Sequence record: PZ019085.1
DNA length: 64,000 bases
Origin: a phage
Direction: 5' to 3' (one strand)
The notes below the pieces were generated by a model. It had not been told where the DNA came from, made no database searches, and was given only the letters and a program-made list of their open reading frames with translations. Position 1 is the stretch's first letter. Each line of letters starts with the position of its first letter. Shown here piece by piece: positions 7,325 to 43,196 of the stretch. Made by a program: the position numbers and the translations under genes.

Positions 7325-7527
7325 GTCAAACAAAAATTCTTACAGGTGCTAAATGCGAAAAATGCGAATGGCCTGTAGTTTTTGCTTTATGCAATGACGA
7401 AATGGCTTGTGATTTTGATTATTGGTGTTACTGTTCGAACAAAGGTTGTAGCAATCATAAAGGTGAAGGGTTTTACTCAGGATTTTACCCTTACCCAGAT
7501 TTCGTTAAAGAAGGTGAACCTAAATGA
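7315..7527 (+). CDS. Cys-rich small protein (possible zinc binding)
   Basis: CEKCEW ... CNDEMAC ... CYCSNKGC cysteine pattern. Confidence 0.45.
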   Translation: MAMSQTKILTGAKCEKCEWPVVFALCNDEMACDFDYWCYCSNKGCSNHKGEGFYSGFYPYPDFVKEGEPK

Positions 7528-7706
7528 AATTAACTAAAGAAGAGAAAGCTAAACTGTTTGAACTTATTCATGACCTATTGGATGAGCAAGCAGCCACCAA
7601 TGCGTACGATGAATATGCTCCTTTAACAGATGAAGAATATCAAGCATTGATGGAATCATTTGACAGGAAAGAACAAGAACTCATTGACTACGTGAATTCA
7701 CTATAA
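7524..7706 (+). CDS. Hypothetical acidic protein
   Basis: ORF track. Confidence 0.45.
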   Translation: MKLTKEEKAKLFELIHDLLDEQAATNAYDEYAPLTDEEYQALMESFDRKEQELIDYVNSL

Positions 7707-7715
7707 GGGACTCTT

Positions 7716-8297
7716 ATGGCTAGTTTAATTTTTACATATGCCGCTATGAACGCTGGTAAGTCTGCTTCATTACTTACTGCCGCACATAACTATAAAGAAC
7801 GTGGCATGGGTGTATTAGTTCTTAAACCGGCTATTGATACTCGCGATTCAAAAGGTGAAATAGTCTCTCGTATTGGTATTCGTCAGGACGCCAATATAAT
7901 TACAAAAGACATGGATATCTTTGAATTCTATAAATGGGCTGCGGCACAAAAGGATATTCATTGTGTATTTGTTGACGAAGCTCAGTTCTTAACTACTGAA
8001 AAGGTGTATCAACTTAGTCGTATTGTTGACGTATACAATGTGCCAGTAATGGCATATGGACTACGAACAGATTTTAAAGGTAATCTATTTGAAGGTTCTC
8101 AAGCATTAATGGCTATTGCCGATAAGCTTGTTGAACTTAAAGGTGTCTGTCATTGTGGTAAAAAGGCCACAATGGTAGCTAGAGTCACGGAAGACGGACT
8201 TCCAATTACGGATGGCAGTCAAATTGAAATTGGTGATACCGATAGATATGTGTCATTATGCCGGAAGCATTGGAATGATTTGACAGGGTTGTTATAA
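7716..8297 (+). CDS. tk: Thymidine kinase
   Basis: P-loop NAGKSASLL, FVDEAQF, C-terminal CHCGKKA zinc ribbon; matches T4 Tk. Confidence 0.95.
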   Translation: MASLIFTYAAMNAGKSASLLTAAHNYKERGMGVLVLKPAIDTRDSKGEIVSRIGIRQDANIITKDMDIFEFYKWAAAQKDIHCVFVDEAQFLTTEKVYQLSRIVDVYNVPVMAYGLRTDFKGNLFEGSQALMAIADKLVELKGVCHCGKKATMVARVTEDGLPITDGSQIEIGDTDRYVSLCRKHWNDLTGLL

Positions 8298-8953: not shown

Positions 8954-9133
8954 ATGACACGTAAAGAAAAGATTTCTAAGTTGATGTTTTTGATTGAAGA
9001 GTACGCTAATGCGGTATCTGATTGGGAAAATGCTCATGGTTGCGAAGATGGAGACATCGACATTAACAGAGCTATGAAAAAGATGGCCGATGCCCACACC
9101 GAATTGCAAATGTATGTTAACGAGATTATGTGA
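8954..9133 (+). CDS. Hypothetical protein
   Basis: ATG at 8954 after gaggag. Confidence 0.45.
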   Translation: MTRKEKISKLMFLIEEYANAVSDWENAHGCEDGDIDINRAMKKMADAHTELQMYVNEIM

Positions 9134-9140
9134 GGATATT

Positions 9141-9305
9141 ATGCTTTACGATTATACTGGAAAATCTGAAGACGGTGTACTTGAACTTTTACCTGAAAGC
9201 GCTGAAGATGATATGGTAGTGATGTTTTGTGTCGGTTGTCAATCAATGCGTGATGAAATTTTTAAACGTGAACCAAGAAACTGTTGGCACAGGAGCATGA
9301 GATGA
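9141..9305 (+). CDS. Hypothetical small protein (paralog of 9397..9612)
   Basis: MLYDYTGKSEDGVLELLPE resembles MLYDPSGNFENGVIVLEPE downstream. Confidence 0.4.
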   Translation: MLYDYTGKSEDGVLELLPESAEDDMVVMFCVGCQSMRDEIFKREPRNCWHRSMR

Positions 9306-9397
9306 TTTACTATCTTGAACCTTGGGCTTGGTTAACAATGGCTATAGGGCCTGTTTTAATTGGTTTATTCTTTTCATGGTTAGCGAGGAAACTGTAA
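9302..9397 (+). CDS. Possible 31-aa transmembrane peptide
   Basis: MIYYLEPWAWLTMAIGPVLIGLFFSWLARKL; below the ORF-track size cutoff; fills the gap between the two paralogs. Confidence 0.25.
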   Translation: MIYYLEPWAWLTMAIGPVLIGLFFSWLARKL

Positions 9398-9612
9398 TGT
9401 TGTATGACCCAAGTGGTAATTTTGAAAATGGTGTGATTGTTCTGGAACCTGAGCATCCAGTTGGTGACGTATACCGCCCAGTTGAAGTATGCGAATGTAA
9501 TTTTGTTGCAGGTAATACTGGTGGGATTTCCATTGAGCAAGATGATGATGTTATTTACCTGGATGCAAGCCAAGTAGAAGCGCTTTATAGTATTTTAAAA
9601 CACAATCGGTAG
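9397..9612 (+). CDS. Hypothetical small protein (paralog of 9141..9305)
   Basis: ATG at 9397 after gaggaa. Confidence 0.4.
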   Translation: MLYDPSGNFENGVIVLEPEHPVGDVYRPVEVCECNFVAGNTGGISIEQDDDVIYLDASQVEALYSILKHNR

Positions 9613-9776
9613 TTTACGTCTTGGTAGGACTATGATATAGTAATCCTACCAAAACAAATGGAGAACAAAATGAAACTTTTGCTTATCGCTTATGTTGTAG
9701 TACAATACAATTATCCGATGTTTACTTATAACATGGTAAACGGCATAGTGAATCTTATTGAAACGAGTATGGTAAA

Positions 9777-9956
9777 ATGACCCGTGAACAAGCTAATAAA
9801 TTGATGGACCTTATCCATGACTTACGTGAAGCCGATTCAGATTTGAATGATGTAGCTTATCATGCGGTAAATGATAACGTAGACTTTTATGAAAATCAGG
9901 TTGATGCTTGCCAGGATGCTTTGGTGAATTTTGTTGAAACTTTAATTGGTGAATAA
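9777..9956 (+). CDS. Possible 59-aa acidic protein
   Basis: MTREQANKLMDLIHDLREADSDLNDV...; below the track cutoff; ATGA overlap with an upstream 36-aa ORF (9670..9780). Confidence 0.3.
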   Translation: MTREQANKLMDLIHDLREADSDLNDVAYHAVNDNVDFYENQVDACQDALVNFVETLIGE

Positions 9957-33894: not shown

Positions 33895-36606
33895 ATGAAA
33901 GAATTTTACTTAACGGTTGAACAGATTGGTGATTCAATTTTTGAACGTTACATCGATTCTAACGGCCGTGAACGTACTCGTGAAGTAGAATATAAACCAT
34001 CACTGTTTGCTCATTGTCCAGAAAGTCAGGCTACGAAATATTTCGATATCTACGGTAAGCCGTGTACTCGTAAGTTGTTCGCTAATATGCGTGATGCCTC
34101 CCAATGGATTAAACGCATGGAAGATATCGGACTTGAAGCACTTGGCATGGACGATTTCAAATTGGCGTATTTGTCTGACACTTATAACTATGAAATCAAA
34201 TACGACCATACAAAAATTCGTGTGGCCAACTTCGACATCGAAGTAACATCTCCTGACGGGTTCCCTGAGCCGTCACAAGCAAAACATCCGATTGATGCTA
34301 TCACCCATTATGACTCAATTGACGACAGGTTCTACGTATTTGATCTATTGAATTCTCCATATGGTAATGTGGAAGAATGGTCTATTGAAATCGCTGCTAA
34401 GCTTCAAGAACAAGGTGGTGATGAAGTTCCATCTGAAATTATCGATAAAATCATTTATATGCCATTCGATAATGAAAAAGAATTGTTGATGGAATATCTC
34501 AACTTCTGGCAACAGAAAACTCCTGTCATTTTGACTGGATGGAACGTTGAGTCATTTGATATTCCATATGTGTATAACCGAATCAAGAATATTTTTGGCG
34601 AATCTACTGCGAAACGTTTATCACCACATCGTAAAACTCGTGTTAAAGTTATCGAAAACATGTATGGTTCTCGTGAAATCATCACATTGTTTGGTATCTC
34701 TGTTCTTGATTATATTGACCTTTACAAAAAATTCTCTTTCACGAACCAACCGTCATATTCTCTGGATTACATTTCAGAATTTGAATTGAACGTTGGTAAA
34801 CTGAAATATGACGGCCCTATTTCTAAGCTTCGTGAAAGCAATCACCAACGATATATTTCTTATAACATCATCGACGTATATCGTGTATTGCAAATTGACG
34901 CTAAACGCCAGTTCATTAACTTGAGTTTGGACATGGGTTATTATGCTAAAATTCAGATTCAATCTGTGTTCAGTCCAATTAAAACTTGGGATGCTATTAT
35001 TTTTAATAGCCTTAAAGAACAAAACAAGGTGATTCCACAAGGTCGTTCTCACCCGGTTCAACCTTATCCTGGCGCTTTTGTTAAGGAACCTATTCCAAAT
35101 CGATACAAATATGTGATGAGCTTCGACCTCACATCTCTGTATCCAAGTATTATTCGCCAAGTGAATATTAGCCCAGAAACAATAGCAGGAACGTTTAAAG
35201 TAGCTCCATTGCATGATTATATTAACGCTGTTGCTGAACGTCCTTCTGATGTGTACAGTTGCTCTCCTAACGGCATGATGTATTATAAAGACCGTGATGG
35301 TGTAGTTCCAACTGAAATCACTAAAGTCTTTAATCAACGTAAAGAACATAAAGGTTATATGCTTGCAGCTCAACGTAATGGTGAAATAATTAAAGAGGCG
35401 TTGCATAATCCTAATCTTTCTGTTGATGAACCATTAGACGTTGATTATCGTTTTGACTTCACTGACGAGATTAAAGAAAAGATTAAAAAGTTGTCTGCTA
35501 AATCTCTTAATGAAATGTTGTTTAGAGCTCAACGTACTGAAGTTGCAGGTATGACTGCACAAATTAACCGTAAATTGCTTATCAACTCACTTTATGGTGC
35601 ACTTGGCAACGTTTGGTTCCGTTATTATGATTTACGTAATGCTACTGCAATCACAACATTCGGGCAAATGGCTTTACAGTGGATTGAACGTAAAGTTAAT
35701 GAATATCTGAATGAAGTTTGTGGTACAGAAGGCGAAGCTTTCGTTCTATATGGTGATACAGACTCCATTTACGTATCTGCTGATAAAATTATTGATAAGG
35801 TTGGTGAATCTAAATTCCGTGATACCAACCATTGGGTAGACTTCTTAGATAAGTTTGCACGTGAACGTATGGAACCAGCTATTGATAGAGGTTTCCGTGA
35901 AATGTGTGAATACATGAACAATAAACAACACTTAATGTTCATGGACCGAGAAGCTATCGCTGGACCTCCGCTTGGTTCTAAAGGTATTGGCGGATTTTGG
36001 ACAGGTAAGAAACGTTATGCATTAAACGTGTGGGATATGGAAGGAACCAGATACGCTGAACCTAAGCTTAAAATCATGGGTCTCGAAACACAGAAATCTT
36101 CGACCCCTAAAGCAGTACAGAAAGCTCTTAAAGAATGTATTCGTCGTATGCTTCAAGAAGGTGAAGAATCGTTACAAGAATATTTTAAAGAGTTTGAAAA
36201 AGAATTCCGTCAATTGAATTATATTAGCATCGCGTCGGTATCTTCTGCTAATAACATCGCTAAATATGATGTTGGTGGATTCCCTGGTCCTAAATGCCCG
36301 TTCCATATTCGTGGAATTCTAACGTATAACCGGGCTATCAAAGGTAATATCGATGCACCACAAGTTGTAGAAGGTGAAAAAGTATATGTTCTGCCTTTAC
36401 GTGAAGGAAACCCATTCGGTGATAAATGTATCGCATGGCCTTCTGGCACTGAAATCACAGATTTAATTAAAGACGACGTACTTCATTGGATGGACTACAC
36501 TGTTCTCCTTGAGAAGACATTTATTAAACCACTTGAAGGATTCACATCAGCAGCGAAACTCGATTACGAGAAGAAAGCATCTCTGTTCGATATGTTCGAT
36601 TTTTGA
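33895..36606 (+). CDS. 43: DNA polymerase gp43 (family B)
   Basis: 903 aa; exonuclease motifs FDIE and YNIIDV, polymerase motifs DLTSLYPSI and YGDTDS; N-terminus MKEFYLTVEQIGDSIFERYIDSNGRERTREV recalled as RB69-type gp43. Confidence 0.97.
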   Translation: MKEFYLTVEQIGDSIFERYIDSNGRERTREVEYKPSLFAHCPESQATKYFDIYGKPCTRKLFANMRDASQWIKRMEDIGLEALGMDDFKLAYLSDTYNYEIKYDHTKIRVANFDIEVTSPDGFPEPSQAKHPIDAITHYDSIDDRFYVFDLLNSPYGNVEEWSIEIAAKLQEQGGDEVPSEIIDKIIYMPFDNEKELLMEYLNFWQQKTPVILTGWNVESFDIPYVYNRIKNIFGESTAKRLSPHRKTRVKVIENMYGSREIITLFGISVLDYIDLYKKFSFTNQPSYSLDYISEFELNVGKLKYDGPISKLRESNHQRYISYNIIDVYRVLQIDAKRQFINLSLDMGYYAKIQIQSVFSPIKTWDAIIFNSLKEQNKVIPQGRSHPVQPYPGAFVKEPIPNRYKYVMSFDLTSLYPSIIRQVNISPETIAGTFKVAPLHDYINAVAERPSDVYSCSPNGMMYYKDRDGVVPTEITKVFNQRKEHKGYMLAAQRNGEIIKEALHNPNLSVDEPLDVDYRFDFTDEIKEKIKKLSAKSLNEMLFRAQRTEVAGMTAQINRKLLINSLYGALGNVWFRYYDLRNATAITTFGQMALQWIERKVNEYLNEVCGTEGEAFVLYGDTDSIYVSADKIIDKVGESKFRDTNHWVDFLDKFARERMEPAIDRGFREMCEYMNNKQHLMFMDREAIAGPPLGSKGIGGFWTGKKRYALNVWDMEGTRYAEPKLKIMGLETQKSSTPKAVQKALKECIRRMLQEGEESLQEYFKEFEKEFRQLNYISIASVSSANNIAKYDVGGFPGPKCPFHIRGILTYNRAIKGNIDAPQVVEGEKVYVLPLREGNPFGDKCIAWPSGTEITDLIKDDVLHWMDYTVLLEKTFIKPLEGFTSAAKLDYEKKASLFDMFDF

Positions 36607-36646: not shown

Positions 36647-37282
36647 ATGAAAACTACACCAATCACTATCGCTATTGACGCAATCGTAAAACAAGCTTCA
36701 TCTCTTGCCACTATGGCTAAAGTAATTAGTCAAAACCCTGCCCGATATAATGCTATTCTTGAAACTCTTCGTCGCCCTGGACTGAGTAATTATGAAAGCC
36801 GAGTAATTATTACAGGTGTTGGTAAGAATGCTAATATTGCAACTAAAGCTTCTGAGACATTTGCTTCATTAGGTATTCCTAGCATGTATTTGAACACTGG
36901 GCATTATTCTCATGGTGACGCAGGATTTATTGCACCTAATGATGTATTAGTTCACATCAGTCGTTCTGGTAAGACTGAAGAAATGATAGGTGTTGCTAAA
37001 CATCTTCGTATGATTCGTCCTCAGGTTAAACAGATTCTGTTACATTGTAACCCTGACATTCCACAAGAATACGAAGCTCTTTTTGATTATACGTTCTGTA
37101 CCGGTATCGCGGTAGAAGTTGACGAGAACTCTTTAGCTCCGACGATGTCTACTACATTGTTGTTAGCGCTTATCGATACGTTCGCTATCAACCTTTCATC
37201 TGAACGTGGATTTACCTCTAATGATTTCCTTAAGTTCCATCCAGGCGGTGCACTAGGTGCCATGTTACGAGGCGAGCAATGA
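36647..37282 (+). CDS. SIS-domain sugar-phosphate isomerase (KdsD/GutQ/GmhA-like)
   Basis: ITGVGKNANIATKASETFASLGIPSMYLNTG...HGD...VLVHISRSGKTEEM matches the SIS-domain pattern of arabinose-5-phosphate or phosphoheptose isomerases; no CBS domain. Confidence 0.8.
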   Translation: MKTTPITIAIDAIVKQASSLATMAKVISQNPARYNAILETLRRPGLSNYESRVIITGVGKNANIATKASETFASLGIPSMYLNTGHYSHGDAGFIAPNDVLVHISRSGKTEEMIGVAKHLRMIRPQVKQILLHCNPDIPQEYEALFDYTFCTGIAVEVDENSLAPTMSTTLLLALIDTFAINLSSERGFTSNDFLKFHPGGALGAMLRGEQ

Positions 37283-37463: not shown

Positions 37464-39149
37464 ATGAAAAAAGCTGTTATTCTTGGTGCTGGACTGGCAA
37501 CTCGTTTGTATCCAATAACGCATCATATTCCTAAGGTGCTTGTTAACTATAAACAAGACACTATTCTGAGCAATTTGTATACAATTTATTCTGACCTTGG
37601 CGCAGATGAAATTATTGTAGTAGTTCATTCAAAATTTGCTGAAACTGTTCGAGCTTATTGTGAGCAAGAAGGGTTCAATGTGACTATTCGTACAGTTGAT
37701 GAAGCATACGGATCTGCTTATGCTCTTGCTAAATTACACAAAGATTTAGACGGCCATAATGTAATTGTTAACTGGTGCGATATTATTCCTGATTTTGGTT
37801 CATGGTCTTGGAATGTTAACGCAATCTATGTTAAGGGTGACGAATGTCGGTATAATTTCGACGGTGAAAATATCACTAACGTAGGTTCAACAGGTGGTAA
37901 TGTTGTAGGAATTTATCAGTTCAAAGACTGGGAATTCTATATGGGTTCTACCGATGAGGAAATTCATGAATACTGCAAAGGACGTGATTTCGTAGAATTC
38001 CTTTACAGCGGCGCATTCAATAAATCAGAGCTTATGAATATAATTGATTTAGGTGATATGCCTAAACTTGAAAAAGCTCATGAAGTTCGTGAACTTAATC
38101 GTAGTTTTAATGCAGTTGAAATTGGTGAAGAAACTGTAACTAAATTCGCATTAACCGAACAGGGCCGAGCTCTTCAGAAAGATGAGATTTCATGGTATCT
38201 TAAAGTGAAATCAGATTCAGTTCCTCAGTTAGTTTCTGTTAATGAAAATAACTTTGAAATGGAACGCATTAAAGGTAAGCCGGCATTTGAATATATTAAA
38301 TCCAAATCAAGTCTTGCTCGTCCACAAATTGTTGATGCAATTTTAGATGCACTGAAATTCAGCACAGACACTTATTTTGTAAGTCCTGAAACTGTTCGTC
38401 GTGATTTCACTAAAGAATTCTATACGAAAGTTATTGATCGTTGTGAAAGTATTCAACCATTGATTGATTCATTTGGTAAAATCACACATGTGAACTACAC
38501 TAAGATTGGACGTCTGAAGCCAATGCTGAAACAAGCTTTAGAACACCTTATTCGTTATCATAACCGTTCTCAGGGACAGTACTCTGTTATTCATGGTGAC
38601 CCTAACTTCAGTAATACTATGATTACTGATAACGGCGAAGTCAAGTTTATCGACCCTCGTGGATATTTTGGTGAAACCAAGATTTACGGGCCAAAATTGT
38701 ATGACGAAGCTAAAGTGCTTTATGCTGTTTCAGGTTATGATGAATTCAATGCTAATCCGACCTGGGGACAGTTTACTATTGATGAAACAACTTGTAATGT
38801 GACTATTAACATCAATCCATTAATTTACAAATATGGAAAGATGAGTTCGTTTAACGAGTATCATCATTTGGCGGTGGCAATTATCTGGATTGCATTGGGT
38901 GGTTATTTCAAGAATAATCCACTTAAAGCGGTAGCCGCATATTATAAAGGTATGGAACTTCTGACTAAGCAATTACGTAACATGGGCCGTGTACTTCAGG
39001 ACGGCTCTATTAGTTATGACGTAGCAGAACCTGTAACGGCTACTCTGATTACAAAAAATCCTGGTAAATGGGTACTAACTGATAAAGAAACTGGTGTTTC
39101 TTATCGTCCAATCGGTGGCGATATCACTCATCAATGGGAACGAATCTAA
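37464..39149 (+). CDS. Bifunctional sugar-1-phosphate nucleotidylyltransferase / APH-like sugar kinase
   Basis: N-terminal ILGAGLATRL (RmlA/GlmU-type NTP-transferase G-x-G-T-R motif); C-terminal HGDPNFSNTMI ... FIDPRG (phosphotransferase/choline-kinase-like catalytic loop). Confidence 0.75.
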   Translation: MKKAVILGAGLATRLYPITHHIPKVLVNYKQDTILSNLYTIYSDLGADEIIVVVHSKFAETVRAYCEQEGFNVTIRTVDEAYGSAYALAKLHKDLDGHNVIVNWCDIIPDFGSWSWNVNAIYVKGDECRYNFDGENITNVGSTGGNVVGIYQFKDWEFYMGSTDEEIHEYCKGRDFVEFLYSGAFNKSELMNIIDLGDMPKLEKAHEVRELNRSFNAVEIGEETVTKFALTEQGRALQKDEISWYLKVKSDSVPQLVSVNENNFEMERIKGKPAFEYIKSKSSLARPQIVDAILDALKFSTDTYFVSPETVRRDFTKEFYTKVIDRCESIQPLIDSFGKITHVNYTKIGRLKPMLKQALEHLIRYHNRSQGQYSVIHGDPNFSNTMITDNGEVKFIDPRGYFGETKIYGPKLYDEAKVLYAVSGYDEFNANPTWGQFTIDETTCNVTININPLIYKYGKMSSFNEYHHLAVAIIWIALGGYFKNNPLKAVAAYYKGMELLTKQLRNMGRVLQDGSISYDVAEPVTATLITKNPGKWVLTDKETGVSYRPIGGDITHQWERI

Positions 39150-39535
39150 TGCATCGTGTAGAAAACATGCTTAATCTTTGTTTTGATGTCGACGATTGTA
39201 TAACAGAGTGGAATAACAATCGTGATTACGTGAACTTCAAGCCAGACGTCGAAATGGTGTCTGCCATTAATGCCCTGTATGATGCAGGGCATACCATAAC
39301 GCTTTACACTGCTCGTGGTATGAAGTCAGTAGGTCCTGGTCGTATAGCAATTGACATTCTCCCAAGTCTGATTCAGAACTTGGCAAACATTGGCTTGAAG
39401 TACCATAATTTGCTAACACATAAACCAGTATATGATTGGATTATCGACGACAAAGCTATGCGTCCCGACGAATTCAAAGCTCTTATGAATAAAGGCGAAT
39501 TCGAAACATTTAAATCATATAAACCGAATCTATAA
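39149..39535 (+). CDS. HAD-superfamily phosphatase-like protein
   Basis: FDVDDCIT near the N-terminus, TARG, WIIDDKA; size typical of KdsC/GmhB-type small HAD phosphatases. Confidence 0.55.
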   Translation: MHRVENMLNLCFDVDDCITEWNNNRDYVNFKPDVEMVSAINALYDAGHTITLYTARGMKSVGPGRIAIDILPSLIQNLANIGLKYHNLLTHKPVYDWIIDDKAMRPDEFKALMNKGEFETFKSYKPNL

Positions 39536-39589
39536 TAATTTAAGTAAGACCTGCAAAAACCATCGCATAAATTAACGCGAGATGCAAAA

Positions 39590-40750
39590 ATGAATACTTT
39601 TAAAATCGGAACGAATTTTGATTTAGCTCTTCTTGATAAAATCGTAGAGCTCAATAAAACTTATCCTAATAGCTTGATAAACGAAGTATACGGCTCTACA
39701 AGAGAAATGGCTTTTGTAGCAGCCAGACCTGATTTTAGGCTTCCTGACGTTGACAAAAAGATGTTAGAAGATTACGTTAAACGTTGTAATGAATTAGGTA
39801 TTTGCTTTAACTATACACTCAACACGATAAATCCCGGTTCAAAAAGAGAACTAGTTGAGTGGAAGAAGAAAGCTATTCAGGATTATGTTCAGTATCTTTG
39901 GTCAATAGGCGTATGGCGTATTACTATCGCTAACCCTGTTGTTATGGAAATTGTTCGTGAAGTCAATAAAGACATTGAGATTGAAGTTTCAACAATTCTA
40001 CATGTCGATGCTGTAACTCAAATCAAATACTTACATGACCAATACAATATCAAAAAGGTCTGCTGTGGAATTCATAAGAACCGTTCAGTTTCTTTCCTGA
40101 AGCGTGCAGCAGAGTTTTGCAATAAGAACAATATAATATTTGAAGTTCTTGTAAATGAGTTCTGTTCTAATGCTGGTAAAGGGTATACAACACATTGTAG
40201 CTATCGTGACTCTTGCTATATTTTCCATAGTACTGATGTTACAGCTGATGATGCTAAATCCTTAAACGGGTATCCAATGCAACACTGCATTAAAGCTCGT
40301 GATACAGACCCATTTAACTGGTTGAGAACTCGTTTTGTTCGTCCTCAAGATTTGAAACTTTATAATGATATTGGTATCACTCAATTCAAAGTTTCAGGAC
40401 GTACAGGTAGCACAGACTACATTTTGAAAGTTCTTGAAGCATACGCTTCTGAAAAGTTTGAAGGTAATTTGTTAGAACTGTGGAAGCCTTTAGAGACTAT
40501 TTTCACTCTTGAAAACGAAACTGAGTTTTCACATACAGTAAATATTGAAACCTCTTTGTTAGATGGCTTTTTAGAAAAAAGGTGGTTCAGGCATCCAGAT
40601 TTCGATTGTGCTAATGAAATCTGTGGGACGACGTGTACATATTGTGAAAGATATTATAAACGTCAGTTATCTAAAAACGGGTTAGCAGAAAACTCTATAT
40701 CTATTATTGATATAACTAACTCTGATGACGCTTTGAGGTACCCAGAATGA
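39590..40750 (+). CDS. Cys-rich hypothetical enzyme in the sugar island
   Basis: 386 aa with multiple conserved-looking Cys clusters (CANEICGTTCTYC, EFCSNAGKGYTTHCSY); fold not assignable by eye. Confidence 0.55.
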   Translation: MNTFKIGTNFDLALLDKIVELNKTYPNSLINEVYGSTREMAFVAARPDFRLPDVDKKMLEDYVKRCNELGICFNYTLNTINPGSKRELVEWKKKAIQDYVQYLWSIGVWRITIANPVVMEIVREVNKDIEIEVSTILHVDAVTQIKYLHDQYNIKKVCCGIHKNRSVSFLKRAAEFCNKNNIIFEVLVNEFCSNAGKGYTTHCSYRDSCYIFHSTDVTADDAKSLNGYPMQHCIKARDTDPFNWLRTRFVRPQDLKLYNDIGITQFKVSGRTGSTDYILKVLEAYASEKFEGNLLELWKPLETIFTLENETEFSHTVNIETSLLDGFLEKRWFRHPDFDCANEICGTTCTYCERYYKRQLSKNGLAENSISIIDITNSDDALRYPE

Positions 40751-41030
40751 TTTCTAGAAAAACTTTTAACCACCAACTTAATGAAGAGATTTTGACTATG
40801 AAACTGAACACTAACGAACAAATTCTTAAAAAGGCCCTTATGGGGGCCTGTTTGAAACCAAAGCGGCTAAAGTGATTAAAGAACCTGTTCAATTGGAATA
40901 CTACGCTGATGCATTTCTTCATAGTGTTCTTGGAAGTATCGATGCTGAAGCTTTACGGTATATCAACACTGCCAAGAAATTCAAATAAGCTTTACGAATC
41001 GAGTATATAATAAATTGTATTGAGGTAAAC

Positions 41031-41747
41031 ATGGGAAAACATAACACAATGAAATATATCAAAGCCGCAGATTTTCAAACCGCATTTAAAGCAGTCAATC
41101 GTGAAATTTTAGAAAACCCGGAATTCGTAACTGATTCTCGTATTGGACGTTGTAATGAAATTGGGTCTATGACAGTAGTTGTTGACACTCCATCGTCATT
41201 CAAAATGACCGACCCACGTATTAACCGCATCTCTTATGAATATGCCGAAGACTTCTGGAAGTTTATGATTTCTGGTGGTACTGATGCAGAAGAAGCGTTT
41301 AAGGCATATCCTAATGTCGCTAAATTTATTTCTAAACCAAAATCGGATGCTTTGCCTGCAAACTTCAACACTTTCTATGGTCCTCGCATTGCGGCCCAAT
41401 TACCAACTCTTCTAAAAGAACTTAAAGAGAAACCTAACTCTCGAAGAGTTGTGTTCCAAATTCTAGAAAGTTCAGATCAGGCTTTGCTTGATTCGGACGA
41501 AACACTTGAATATCCATGTACTGACTCAGTGACTTATTATATTCGTGATGGTAAGCTTTATACCCACTGTCATATGCGTTCTCAGAACTGTGCTGTTGTT
41601 ATGCAGTTGGATTTTTATCTCCAAGGAAAATTACTTCATTATATCGCTAACGAATGCGGTGTAGAAGTAGGTGATTATACTCATACCATGGTAAGTGCCC
41701 ATGTGTTTGAACGTGATTTTGATTATGTTAAAGGATTCCTTGACTAA
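41031..41747 (+). CDS. 42: dCMP hydroxymethylase (thymidylate-synthase superfamily)
   Basis: PCTDSVTYYIRDGK ... MRSQNCAV resembles the catalytic Cys region of T4 gp42; syntenic position. Confidence 0.75.
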   Translation: MGKHNTMKYIKAADFQTAFKAVNREILENPEFVTDSRIGRCNEIGSMTVVVDTPSSFKMTDPRINRISYEYAEDFWKFMISGGTDAEEAFKAYPNVAKFISKPKSDALPANFNTFYGPRIAAQLPTLLKELKEKPNSRRVVFQILESSDQALLDSDETLEYPCTDSVTYYIRDGKLYTHCHMRSQNCAVVMQLDFYLQGKLLHYIANECGVEVGDYTHTMVSAHVFERDFDYVKGFLD

Positions 41748-42646
41748 TGGCTATTTTCCGCGTACCTATCTTGAGTATGCGGTCTTATGAAACTGGTCAG
41801 TATGCTATCCTTAAGGATGGCAACTTCCAACTTCATTTGCACCGTGCTAATCCAGGCGATGTGATTACATATCCACGTAATGCATCTGATATTAAAGAAT
41901 GTGAACGTCTTTTCCCGGAATTTAAGTTTGTTCCATTATGGTATAAAGATAACGCGTATAACACTCGTAAATATTTCTGGTCTGAAAATGAATTTGTGGT
42001 TGATTCATTAATTGCTTATTATGATTGTGATTTTCTAATCACAGATATCACTGGATATGATGGCGCTTTTGACGTAGAATTCAATTTCAATATCACTGCA
42101 GACCCTAATAAACCACGTTTTTATATTGATGAATTCTTAAAAACCGACATGTTGTCTGTTAATCGTTCACTTCAAACTACTGTGTTGAATGAACGTCAAA
42201 AAGAAGTGCTGGTTAACGCAGGTGCAGATGGTAATAAGATTATCGTAACGCAGAAAGTTATACGTCCTTCCGTCATGCAGCGTCTTGTAGGTGATTTGGC
42301 TCCTATTCATCTAGATGGTATTTTTCATCCATTTCGAATTAGTGACCCATGCTATCGTTTTGAACAAGTTGTTGAATGCGCAATTCAATTAGGTCAACCG
42401 CTTTATATAACTGATCCAAATAATAGTTTCGACAGAAATAAGTATCCTGAAGAAGCGCTGATTCGAATTTTTAATCCAACTAAAACTGAGTACTATCAAA
42501 TTCTTAAAGGACGTCCGAAGATTCAATATTTCGAAAATCCTGAAGAAGTATTCCATCCAGGTCTTGGTGAGTTCATCTACTTTAATGCTTTAATTTCTTC
42601 ACCGTATAATATACCTAAATACGAAGATGTCGTAATCGAGGAATAA
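41747..42646 (+). CDS. Hypothetical protein at the position of T4 beta-glucosyltransferase
   Basis: 299 aa; no match to T4 beta-gt noticed. Confidence 0.55.
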   Translation: MAIFRVPILSMRSYETGQYAILKDGNFQLHLHRANPGDVITYPRNASDIKECERLFPEFKFVPLWYKDNAYNTRKYFWSENEFVVDSLIAYYDCDFLITDITGYDGAFDVEFNFNITADPNKPRFYIDEFLKTDMLSVNRSLQTTVLNERQKEVLVNAGADGNKIIVTQKVIRPSVMQRLVGDLAPIHLDGIFHPFRISDPCYRFEQVVECAIQLGQPLYITDPNNSFDRNKYPEEALIRIFNPTKTEYYQILKGRPKIQYFENPEEVFHPGLGEFIYFNALISSPYNIPKYEDVVIEE

Positions 42647-42647
42647 A

Positions 42648-43196
42648 ATGGCTAAAATTATTTTAGTAGACGGCCCGGATAATGCTGGTAAAACAACTTT
42701 CATTAATGACATAATGGAAATTAGTGAAAGATATGTAAAGATTGATTTCCCTAAACGAACAGTTGATGGACGTTTCGATGTTAAGTCTCGAAATGAAGTT
42801 GGCTGTTTCGAAACGATGTTGAATTATTTAGACCCTACTAAGATTTATCTGTTAGACCGTGGATATATTAGTAACTGGGTTTATGGACGTATTCGACAAG
42901 ATGTGGACTCGGTTCTTGACGTTTATGAACAGGATTATGTTCGTCTTTGCCAAAACCATGATGTGTTCACAATTATTTTAACACGTAACGAAATGACTGA
43001 AAGTTTTGAAGACGACCTTATTACTTTGTCTTCATTCGGTTTTAATACAGTCATTTCATATTTTGAAGAGTTTGCAATTCATAACAAAATCCAAACGTAT
43101 CAATTACTTAATCATGATGGTGCTAACAAAGTTATAGGATTTAATGCAAGCGAACGTAATTATTTGATTACAGAAATCATTAAATGGGCTCGTTAA
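42648..43196 (+). CDS. P-loop nucleotide kinase (thymidylate/dNMP kinase-like)
   Basis: Walker A DGPDNAGKTT and LLDRGYIS (DRY-like motif of the TMPK fold). Confidence 0.55.
   Translation: MAKIILVDGPDNAGKTTFINDIMEISERYVKIDFPKRTVDGRFDVKSRNEVGCFETMLNYLDPTKIYLLDRGYISNWVYGRIRQDVDSVLDVYEQDYVRLCQNHDVFTIILTRNEMTESFEDDLITLSSFGFNTVISYFEEFAIHNKIQTYQLLNHDGANKVIGFNASERNYLITEIIKWAR

Follow-up and report, generated by a model that had tools for sequence, protein, structure and literature searches.

A U32-family protein encoded in the arabinosyl-5-hydroxycytosine cluster of a Mosigvirus and its possible role in oxygen-independent cytosine hydroxylation

The window analyzed was a stretch of 64,000 nucleotides of phage DNA (PZ019085.1). 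Bas46 'ChristianSchoenbein' and other Mosigvirus phages were 98% identical over the region studied. The cysteine-rich ORF at 39590-40750 described in the initial annotation is real and encodes a protein of 386 amino acids with 13 cysteines. It is the ortholog of RB69 gp50 and was 99.5-99.7% identical to RB69 gp50 and Bas46 bas46_0144. Its reported co-location and co-orientation with the pathway genes also held, as the gp50 ortholog sits among them and all are encoded on the plus strand (Table 1). The ThyA-like protein of the window was 99.6% identical to RB69 ORF048c (gp48). RB69-type DNA contains mono- and di-arabinosylated 5-hydroxycytosine (5hoC) and not hydroxymethylcytosine; gp48 carries out 5-hydroxy-dCMP synthesis with bound flavin (FMN) and oxygen taken from 18O2, and AfhE and AfhF were reported to be sufficient to complete UDP-arabinofuranose formation (PMC13326640). 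The promoter listed just 5' of the gp50 ortholog is a consensus match only, and such matches in the region were not above shuffled expectation.

Table 1. Features of the gp50 locus, with positions in the 64,000 nucleotide window.
Feature	Position	Strand	Basis or remark
DNA polymerase	33895-36606	+	
SIS-domain arabinose-5-phosphate isomerase-like	36647..37282	+	PMC13326640 Table 1
AfhE-like bifunctional sugar kinase / nucleotidyltransferase	37464..39149	+	PMC13326640
AfhF-like phosphatase	39134..39535	+	PMC13326640; no Pfam match here
Sigma-70-like promoter match TTTAAA-16-TATAAT	39509..39536	+	just 5' of gp50 ortholog
U32-family gene, RB69 gp50 ortholog	39590..40750	+	single ATG ORF, 386 aa
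Predicted U32 TIM-barrel core, residues 53-287	39746..40450	+	hhalign to E. coli RlhA/TrhP/UbiU/UbiV
Central invariant Cys set C192-x10-C203-x5-C209-x23-C233, putative [4Fe-4S] site	40163..40288	+	121 homologues
C-terminal C340-x4-C345-x3-C349-x2-C352 with Y351, putative second metal/Fe-S site	40607..40645	+	invariant Cys
Small ORF, slot of chorismate mutase in related phages	40747..40988	+	frameshifted by +GG
ThyA-like 5-hydroxy-dCMP synthase, RB69 gp48 ortholog	41031..41747	+	Pfam Thymidylat_synt
Putative DNA arabinosyltransferase 1, glycosyltransferase	41747..42646	+	synteny with RB69 gp46:47
Thymidylate-kinase-like nucleotide kinase	42648..43196	+	PMC13326640 Table 1

Cysteine makes up 3.4% of the gp50 ortholog compared to a mean of 1.3%, ranking it second among the 47 window ORFs of at least 150 amino acids. 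The C-x4-C-x3-C-x2-C motif previously noted near the C-terminus matched exactly, at C340, C345, C349 and C352. By our own arithmetic (0.0134^4 per position) the random chance of such a motif is ~1e-5 per protein. An alignment was made of the window protein and 120 database homologues with a lowest identity of 48%. C158, C192, C203, C209, C233, C340, C345, C349 and C352 were invariant in all 121 sequences and C177 was nearly so. This conservation is more telling than the chance figure, and the cysteine observation is far beyond chance. Across T4-like genera the U32 protein was 83-89% identical to the window copy, compared to 65-79% for the DNA polymerase, 74-82% for the ThyA-like protein and 53-72% for the glycosyltransferase. 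The U32 protein is the best conserved of the cluster.

The initial annotation had given the fold as unknown, the sole wrong part of its description, and both Pfam and hhalign placed the protein in the U32 family. Its interpretation of the protein is supported in part. The match to PF01136 (Peptidase_U32, IPR001539) covered residues 94-286 and scored 42.2 bits (gathering score 22.4). When the phage family profile was compared with E. coli RlhA, TrhP, UbiU and UbiV, hhalign aligned residues 53-287 with a probability of 97% (E 8.8e-11). The motifs TLNT and S-T-x-x-H and residue E185 are common to the phage protein and U32, and K-[IV]-[ST]-G-R replaces KIEGR. An AlphaFold2 model of the gp50 ortholog built on 66 sequences was confident (pLDDT 92.9, pTM 0.91). 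Neither the single protein nor the family profile gave a meaningful match in sequence searches against the PDB, and 5D88 was recovered by fold comparison only. The best NCBIfam match was UbiU at 18.5 bits against an equivalog cut-off of 440, and homologue P0038 scored 11.8 bits with the TrhP model, for which the cut-off is 534. As these cut-offs were missed, the gp50 family appears to be a separate U32 subfamily and the ortholog of no characterized protein. Judged by sequence comparison, the gp50 ortholog is a member of the U32 'oxidase' family and represents a distinct phage-borne subfamily.

The cysteines were mapped onto the E. coli U32 proteins by hhalign, a global MAFFT alignment being too poor. 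C203 and C209 fell on essential cysteines of TrhP (C170, C177) and RlhA (C169, C176) (PMC6599085), and E185 fell on TrhP E162 and RlhA E161. The U32 family motif consists of four cysteines, CX6CX15CX3C, preceded by a conserved glutamate (PMC11574389). The central spacing in the phage protein is CX10CX5CX23C and not the canonical one, with the four invariant cysteines following the equivalent beta-strand. RlhA, TrhP, UbiU and UbiV all lack an equivalent of residues 288-386, the C-terminal domain that contains the Cys4 motif, and the Cys4 region was modeled at a pLDDT of ~92-96. A radical SAM site was considered for this region, which contains a CX3CXYC string (C345, C349, Y351, C352), and was rejected; the string is C-terminal and not behind beta-1, is accompanied by a fourth invariant cysteine (C340) and gave no PF04055 match.

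Prephenate is made by chorismate mutase, in a pathway whose first step is that of DAHP synthase. We know of no prephenate user among the other families encoded in the U32 clusters. In Kanagawavirus Entb_45 a 79-aa AroQ chorismate mutase is encoded between the U32 and ThyA-like genes (Pfam CM_2, E 2e-10). The T4-like chorismate mutase had tblastn matches in 56 of 50,697 phage records, 55 of them T4-like phages of Enterobacterales or Shewanella from genera with the U32 gene. The sole match labeled as a non-T4-like phage, MT836175, was discarded as a bacterial pheA-type contig. In IMG/VR the chorismate mutase gene adjoins the U32 gene in 13 of 15 T4-like loci. Two further arrangements were found in unrelated low-GC phage contigs of 130-290 kb, whose U32 proteins are 46-50% identical. 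A stand-alone chorismate mutase lies directly 3' of U32 in L042, L045, L047, L048, L052 and L053 (Pfam E 1e-14 for L042 and L045), and a DAHP-synthase/chorismate-mutase fusion is adjacent to U32 or one gene away in L036, L038, L039, L040 and L050. L025 encodes a DAHP synthase near U32 and no chorismate mutase. KDO8P synthase, which uses arabinose-5-phosphate, was rejected as the identity of the DAHP_synth_1 domain of the fusion, as DAHP-synthase models matched far better (E 1e-36 to 1e-65 compared to 1e-7 to 1e-18 for KDO8PS). The chorismate mutase active-site residues R11, R28, K39 and S84 were invariant and Q88 nearly so. Chorismate mutase is thus found beside this U32 gene in three unrelated architectures.

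The window phage has no chorismate mutase gene of its own. The small Mosigvirus ORF in the corresponding position (79 aa in Bas46) was considered as a degenerate chorismate mutase and rejected, as it gave no CM_2 match and a real chorismate mutase is encoded alongside it in L018, L021 and L026. It belongs to a family distinct from chorismate mutase. The +GG frameshift in the window copy was unique among 154 Mosigvirus records.

Of the 374 phage records with the ThyA-like synthase, 57 were Acinetobacter and 20 were Rhizobium phages. The U32 gene was found in 222 phage records, all at an identity of at least 80%; among those listed, only Enterobacterales and Shewanella phages were present, and at most two of the 222 could be Acinetobacter or Rhizobium records. 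Among 185,579 species genomes there were 13 U32 loci, most of them in MAGs and one in an isolate, from gut-type anaerobes. The anaerobe loci belonged to Erysipelotrichales, Oscillospiraceae, Romboutsia, Gastranaerophilaceae, Tannerella, Phocaeicola faecalis, Clostridia and Angelakisella, and a few of the 13 belonged to other lineages. Among the records listed, the U32 gene appears confined to phages of facultative or strict anaerobes, a host pattern drawn from few independent lineages. It is not universal where arabinosyl-5hoC is made. The cluster of Acinetobacter phage Maestro encodes neither U32 nor chorismate mutase and has isomerase, AfhE-like, phosphatase, ThyA-like and glycosyltransferase genes in the same order. 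The gene was also absent from the published gene list of DLP3, for which tri-arabinosyl-5hoC was found by experiment (PMC13326640). The cluster of the E. coli Dhakavirus WG01 likewise encodes neither U32 nor chorismate mutase, and its AfhE-like, phosphatase, ThyA-like and glycosyltransferase genes are in the same order with no isomerase. As Dhakaviruses infect E. coli without the U32 gene, phages of facultative anaerobes do not strictly require it.

Outside the T4-like phages no 5hodCMP-synthase-like gene was found within 8 kb on either side of U32. Within this distance canonical ThyA was encoded in one locus and ThyX in two, and about 35 U32 loci had no ThyA-like gene nearby. The distant U32 genes were found in four settings. 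They occurred with glycosyltransferase, isomerase, AfhE-like and HAD genes; between a TMPK-like kinase with a glycosyltransferase and Pol III alpha; with a dCMP deaminase gene directly upstream (L006-L008); and in a four-gene cassette of GP88, a guanylate-kinase/SAM-methyltransferase fusion, an uncharacterized gene and U32. The steadiest companion of the U32 gene was an NMP-kinase-type gene. In B. subtilis yrrMNO, U32 proteins are paired with an O-methyltransferase for mo5U, which resembles the phage cassette with methyltransferase and U32.

The gut hosts of RB69-like phages live largely without oxygen. The exchange of 5-hydroxymethylcytosine for 5-hydroxycytosine made these phages dependent on O2, because the oxygen added by the ThyA-like enzyme comes from O2 (PMC13326640). 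Family membership, cysteine conservation and the gene-neighborhood and host patterns were established here. We propose, with about an even chance of being right, that the gp50 ortholog is an O2-independent, prephenate-dependent C5 hydroxylase of a cytosine deoxynucleotide, most likely dCMP, which backs up the ThyA-like enzyme. Fe-S binding, the use of prephenate, the substrate and the anaerobic back-up role are predicted, with the hydroxylation steps modeled on the mechanism proposed for UbiU/UbiV (PMC10990095). The mononucleotide substrate is an extrapolation, as RlhA and TrhP act on RNA polymers. The U32 route would convert dCMP to 5-hydroxy-dCMP without O2, parallel to the FMN/O2-dependent ThyA-like synthase, and the product would then be phosphorylated, polymerized and arabinosylated as usual. 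C192, C203, C209 and C233 would hold the [4Fe-4S] cluster of the catalytic domain. The ring of the substrate would lose two electrons, and prephenate, on decarboxylation to phenylpyruvate and CO2, would provide the hydroxide. The Fe-S cluster or clusters would carry the electrons away, with the C-terminal Cys4 site (a second cluster or metal) as a built-in relay, so that a single chain could do the job of the UbiU-UbiV pair or of an external ferredoxin.

In most related phages prephenate would be supplied by the phage's own chorismate mutase or DAHP-synthase/chorismate-mutase fusion. The Mosigvirus of the window, having lost chorismate mutase, would depend on host PheA/TyrA, like RlhA, TrhP and UbiU/V. 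In RB69-like phages the U32 protein would cover for the O2/FMN enzyme during oxygen-free growth of the host, and where the host is a strict anaerobe the phage may have no other hydroxylase. The altered cysteine spacing and KIEGR motif, the lack of chorismate mutase in the window phage, the Dhakavirus exception and the small number of independent lineages behind the host pattern count against this proposal.

A prephenate-dependent U32 enzyme for nucleotide or DNA modification could also have another substrate or reaction, such as dUMP, dCTP, cytosine in DNA or the further oxidation of 5hoC. This is unlikely, though likelier than the other alternatives. It would draw on the same family and chorismate mutase evidence as dCMP hydroxylation, and the position of the dCMP deaminase gene directly 5' of U32 in three loci, the polymeric substrates of RlhA and TrhP and the different end products suggested by the guanylate-kinase/methyltransferase cassettes all fit. 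However, the T4-like U32 gene adjoins a dCMP-specific synthase and a TMPK-like kinase, and no modified base other than (arabinosyl)-5hoC has been reported from RB69-type DNA. There is little chance that the protein is a phage RNA hydroxylase of the RlhA/TrhP type that adjusts translation in infection through modification of tRNA or rRNA, whether of the host or of the phage. The characterized pyrimidine-C5 U32 enzymes do act on RNA, and T4-like phages carry tRNAs. Against this, scores of ~18 bits were obtained where the UbiU and TrhP equivalog cut-offs are 440-534, the RNA-binding C-terminal extensions of RlhA and TrhP are absent, and the neighbors in unrelated phages were consistently genes for DNA precursors, DNA modification and replication. 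A collagenase-like peptidase, as the database name would have it, is given next to no weight. What favors it is the names in Pfam, PHROG and GenBank; a proteolytic context is absent, the invariant cysteine sets, like the gene context, suggest redox chemistry, the catalytic residues of U32 'peptidases' are undefined in PMC11574389, and reviews treat the family mainly as Fe-S 'U32 oxidases' with 'putative' peptidase members (PMC10990095, PMC11574389).

The two candidate Fe-S sites and the neighboring flavoenzyme, which needs reduced flavin, would also suit an Fe-S redox partner or reductase that is itself no hydroxylase and reduces, for example, the FMN of the ThyA-like enzyme. The label 'sugar or heterocycle reductase' in PMC13326640 Table 1 is in keeping with this. 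Such a role is unlikely, as the ThyA-like enzyme was active in E. coli without gp50 (PMC13326640), Acinetobacter and Dhakavirus phages manage without the U32 gene, ~35 U32 loci have no ThyA-like gene nearby, and the recurrent association with DAHP synthase and chorismate mutase genes would be left unexplained. A role in UDP-arabinose supply as an epimerase, mutase or reductase recalls the BASEL annotation and the 'epimerase' of the Durham paper, and a missing step (mutase or epimerase) was also suggested in the initial annotation. The gene is embedded among the sugar genes of the window, and isomerase, AfhE-like, HAD and glycosyltransferase genes co-occur with U32 in ~20 distant loci, as a sugar role predicts. 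It is nevertheless quite unlikely because the same cluster exists without U32 in Acinetobacter phages and Dhakavirus. Phages reported to have mono- to tri-arabinosyl-5hoC lack the gene, AfhE and AfhF were reported as the complete UDP-Araf synthesis (PMC13326640), U32 genes are also found in loci without sugar genes, and none of the known U32 proteins acts on sugars (PMC11574389).

The hydroxylase reading can be extended to a self-sufficient phage module, which we put forward tentatively and consider less probable than not. In it a DAHPS/chorismate-mutase fusion or a chorismate mutase would serve a two-cluster, single-chain U32 enzyme that hydroxylates deoxynucleotide pyrimidines and is the sole source of the hydroxyl in phages of strict gut anaerobes. 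The hydroxyl 'handle' would then be arabinosylated, or otherwise glycosylated or methylated. If the module exists, a U32 enzyme whose substrate is small and soluble would become available for the first time for reconstituting oxygen transfer from prephenate, and the module would point to a widespread unseen class of DNA hypermodifications based on 5-hydroxypyrimidines.

In the publications examined gp50 has been labeled 'peptidase', 'putative enzyme involved in UDP-arabinose biosynthesis', one of the 'sugar-modifying genes' and 'sugar or heterocycle reductase' (PMC13326640 for the last), and none of them reports an experiment on it or connects it with prephenate or U32 hydroxylases. A full-text literature search found no paper that connects 5hoC with a U32 protein or a chorismate mutase of phages, and an earlier assignment is possible. 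The novelty would lie in the substrate class and the domain make-up of a U32 hydroxylase-type enzyme, and in its dedicated prephenate supply. If dCMP hydroxylation by the gp50 ortholog is correct, it would explain how these phages fully replace cytosine in oxygen-poor gut hosts, add DNA building blocks to the RNA and quinone targets of the U32 'oxidases', and give a reason for shikimate-pathway genes in phages. DNA modification, and hence sensitivity to restriction and type IV systems, would depend on oxygen and on host aromatic metabolism, which would also be relevant to phage therapy and the study of defense systems. The biggest gain would be practical, as an enzyme acting on dCMP would make in vitro catalysis by a U32 protein directly testable.

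Direct in vitro catalysis has never been demonstrated for any U32 protein (PMC10990095, PMC11574389). Formation of ho5C in rRNA requires RlhA and that of ho5U in tRNA requires TrhP, and both proteins are Fe-S and prephenate dependent and O2-independent (PMC5727448, PMC6599085). RlhA (YdcP), the E. coli 23S rRNA 5-hydroxycytidine-2501 synthase, has the fold and core motifs in common with the phage protein, and the chemistry proposed here is the same, at cytosine C5. RlhA has 653 amino acids, a long C-terminal RNA-related extension and an rRNA substrate, whereas the phage protein has 386 amino acids and is encoded in a DNA-precursor cluster. The cysteine spacing also differs and the phage protein has the extra C-terminal Cys4 motif.

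In ubiquinone synthesis three hydroxylations of the ring, all O2-independent, require UbiU/UbiV, and the source of the oxygen was demonstrated to be prephenate (PMC10990095). These U32 Fe-S proteins employ two [4Fe-4S] clusters (PMC10990095), similar to the two putative sites of the phage protein. UbiU-UbiV is a heterodimer with one cluster per subunit and a lipid substrate, while the phage protein has its two invariant Cys4 sets in one chain. For both ho5U and ubiquinone an unrelated O2-dependent enzyme also makes the same product (PMC6599085, PMC10990095). TrhP/TrhO follow the logic proposed for the phage, with unrelated O2 and prephenate enzymes for one 5-hydroxypyrimidine, which suits oxic and anoxic life. 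There the O2 partner is a rhodanese and the target is tRNA; in the phage the partner is a flavin-using thymidylate-synthase homologue and the target would be a DNA building block. In many phages, in contrast to TrhP/TrhO, both genes and chorismate mutase are contiguous.

The only solved U32 domain, MK0906 (PDB 5D88), was 11-14% identical in sequence, has 247 residues, has no characterized function and has no equivalent of the phage domain of residues 288-386 with the Cys4 motif. The phage CmoA/CmoX carboxymethylcytosine pathway is a precedent for the recruitment of prephenate-consuming tRNA-modification enzymes to C5 of DNA cytosine (PMC12783734). That system uses a SAM carboxylase and a methyltransferase homologue, belongs to another family with another product, and was reported with neither a U32 protein nor a phage chorismate mutase (PMC12783734). 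RB69 gp50 and Bas46 bas46_0144 are the same gene as that of the window, in the same position of the arabinosyl-5hoC cluster.

In most T4-like genera that have the arabinosyl-5-hydroxycytosine cluster, an AroQ chorismate mutase of 79-130 aa was encoded between the ThyA-like gene and the U32 gene, which encodes the proposed prephenate-dependent hydroxylase. The corresponding slot in the window is 40750-41030. The chorismate mutase, which makes prephenate, is lost from Mosigvirus, to which the window belongs, and from the Marfavirus-like locus L012. In large uncultivated phages a Bacillus-type DAHP synthase with a chorismate mutase fused to its C-terminus adjoined the U32 gene, and in one locus DAHP synthase stood alone. 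Fused or alone, DAHP synthase beside U32 is the entry step of the shikimate pathway carried by a phage.

The small ORF following the U32 gene in the window was broken by a 2-nt GG insertion within a G run near 40842. The insertion was found in none of 154 Mosigvirus records (best match 97.2%), and the split therefore reflects an error in sequencing or a pseudogene private to this phage. No Pfam match was obtained for the family of this ORF.

The AfhE-like and phosphatase genes of the window overlap by 16 nt (39134-39149) and the ThyA-like and glycosyltransferase genes meet at 41747, which indicates tight translational coupling within the cluster. In contrast to these pairs, the U32 gene follows a 54-nt spacer, and a match to a sigma-70-like promoter consensus lies just upstream (39509-39536). 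In several T4-like phages a NUMOD3 homing-endonuclease-like gene was inserted upstream of U32.

Features at the U32 gene of the window and at other loci with U32 homologues (L numbers)
Feature	Locus	Position (nt)	Strand	Details
AroQ chorismate mutase	L002	7158-7397		
AroQ chorismate mutase	L014-L026	about 9130-9900		
DAHP synthase-chorismate mutase fusion	L040	6332-7384		
DAHP synthase-chorismate mutase fusion	L050	9079-10194		
DAHP synthase-chorismate mutase fusion	L036, L038, L039			
DAHP synthase alone	L025	9080-9823		beside U32 gene
Small ORF after U32 gene	window	40747-40988	+	42 + 38 aa; intact 79 aa in Bas46
NUMOD3 homing-endonuclease-like gene	L014, L019, L021, L022	about 7352-7987		212 aa; between phosphatase and U32 genes
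Four-gene GP88-U32 cassette	L076	3044-7134		Phocaeicola faecalis
Four-gene GP88-U32 cassette	L067, L073-L078, L009/L010, L051			
Two paralogous U32 genes	L009/L010	8001-15428 (L009)		one metagenomic locus
CX3CX(Tyr)C string, radical-SAM-like	window	40622-40645		residues 345-352; Y351 nearly invariant

A UDP-galactopyranose mutase (GLF, E 7e-78) was located within 8 kb of the U32 gene in one of 11 distant loci, which suggests that some U32-bearing phages attach sugars other than arabinose. Near U32, ThyX was present in two loci and canonical ThyA in L027.

A conserved cassette, carried by genomes and MAGs mostly of anaerobes, comprised GP88 (PF17338), a guanylate-kinase/SAM-methyltransferase fusion, a 265-aa protein of unknown function with a faint hint of AGOG glycosylase, and U32. 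Together these genes may produce a pyrimidine nucleotide that is methoxylated or O-alkylated in some other way. The locus with paired U32 genes also encoded NT5C, a deoxynucleoside kinase, an NMN-transporter-like protein, a radical SAM/SPASM protein and a nucleoside 2-deoxyribosyltransferase-like protein, and is a dense nucleotide-modification island.

The cysteine string of the U32 protein sits at the C-terminus of the TIM barrel, together with a fourth invariant cysteine, C340. This motif is probably an ordinary four-Cys site; the string nevertheless merits attention in view of ThiC-type enzymes, which are non-canonical radical SAM enzymes.
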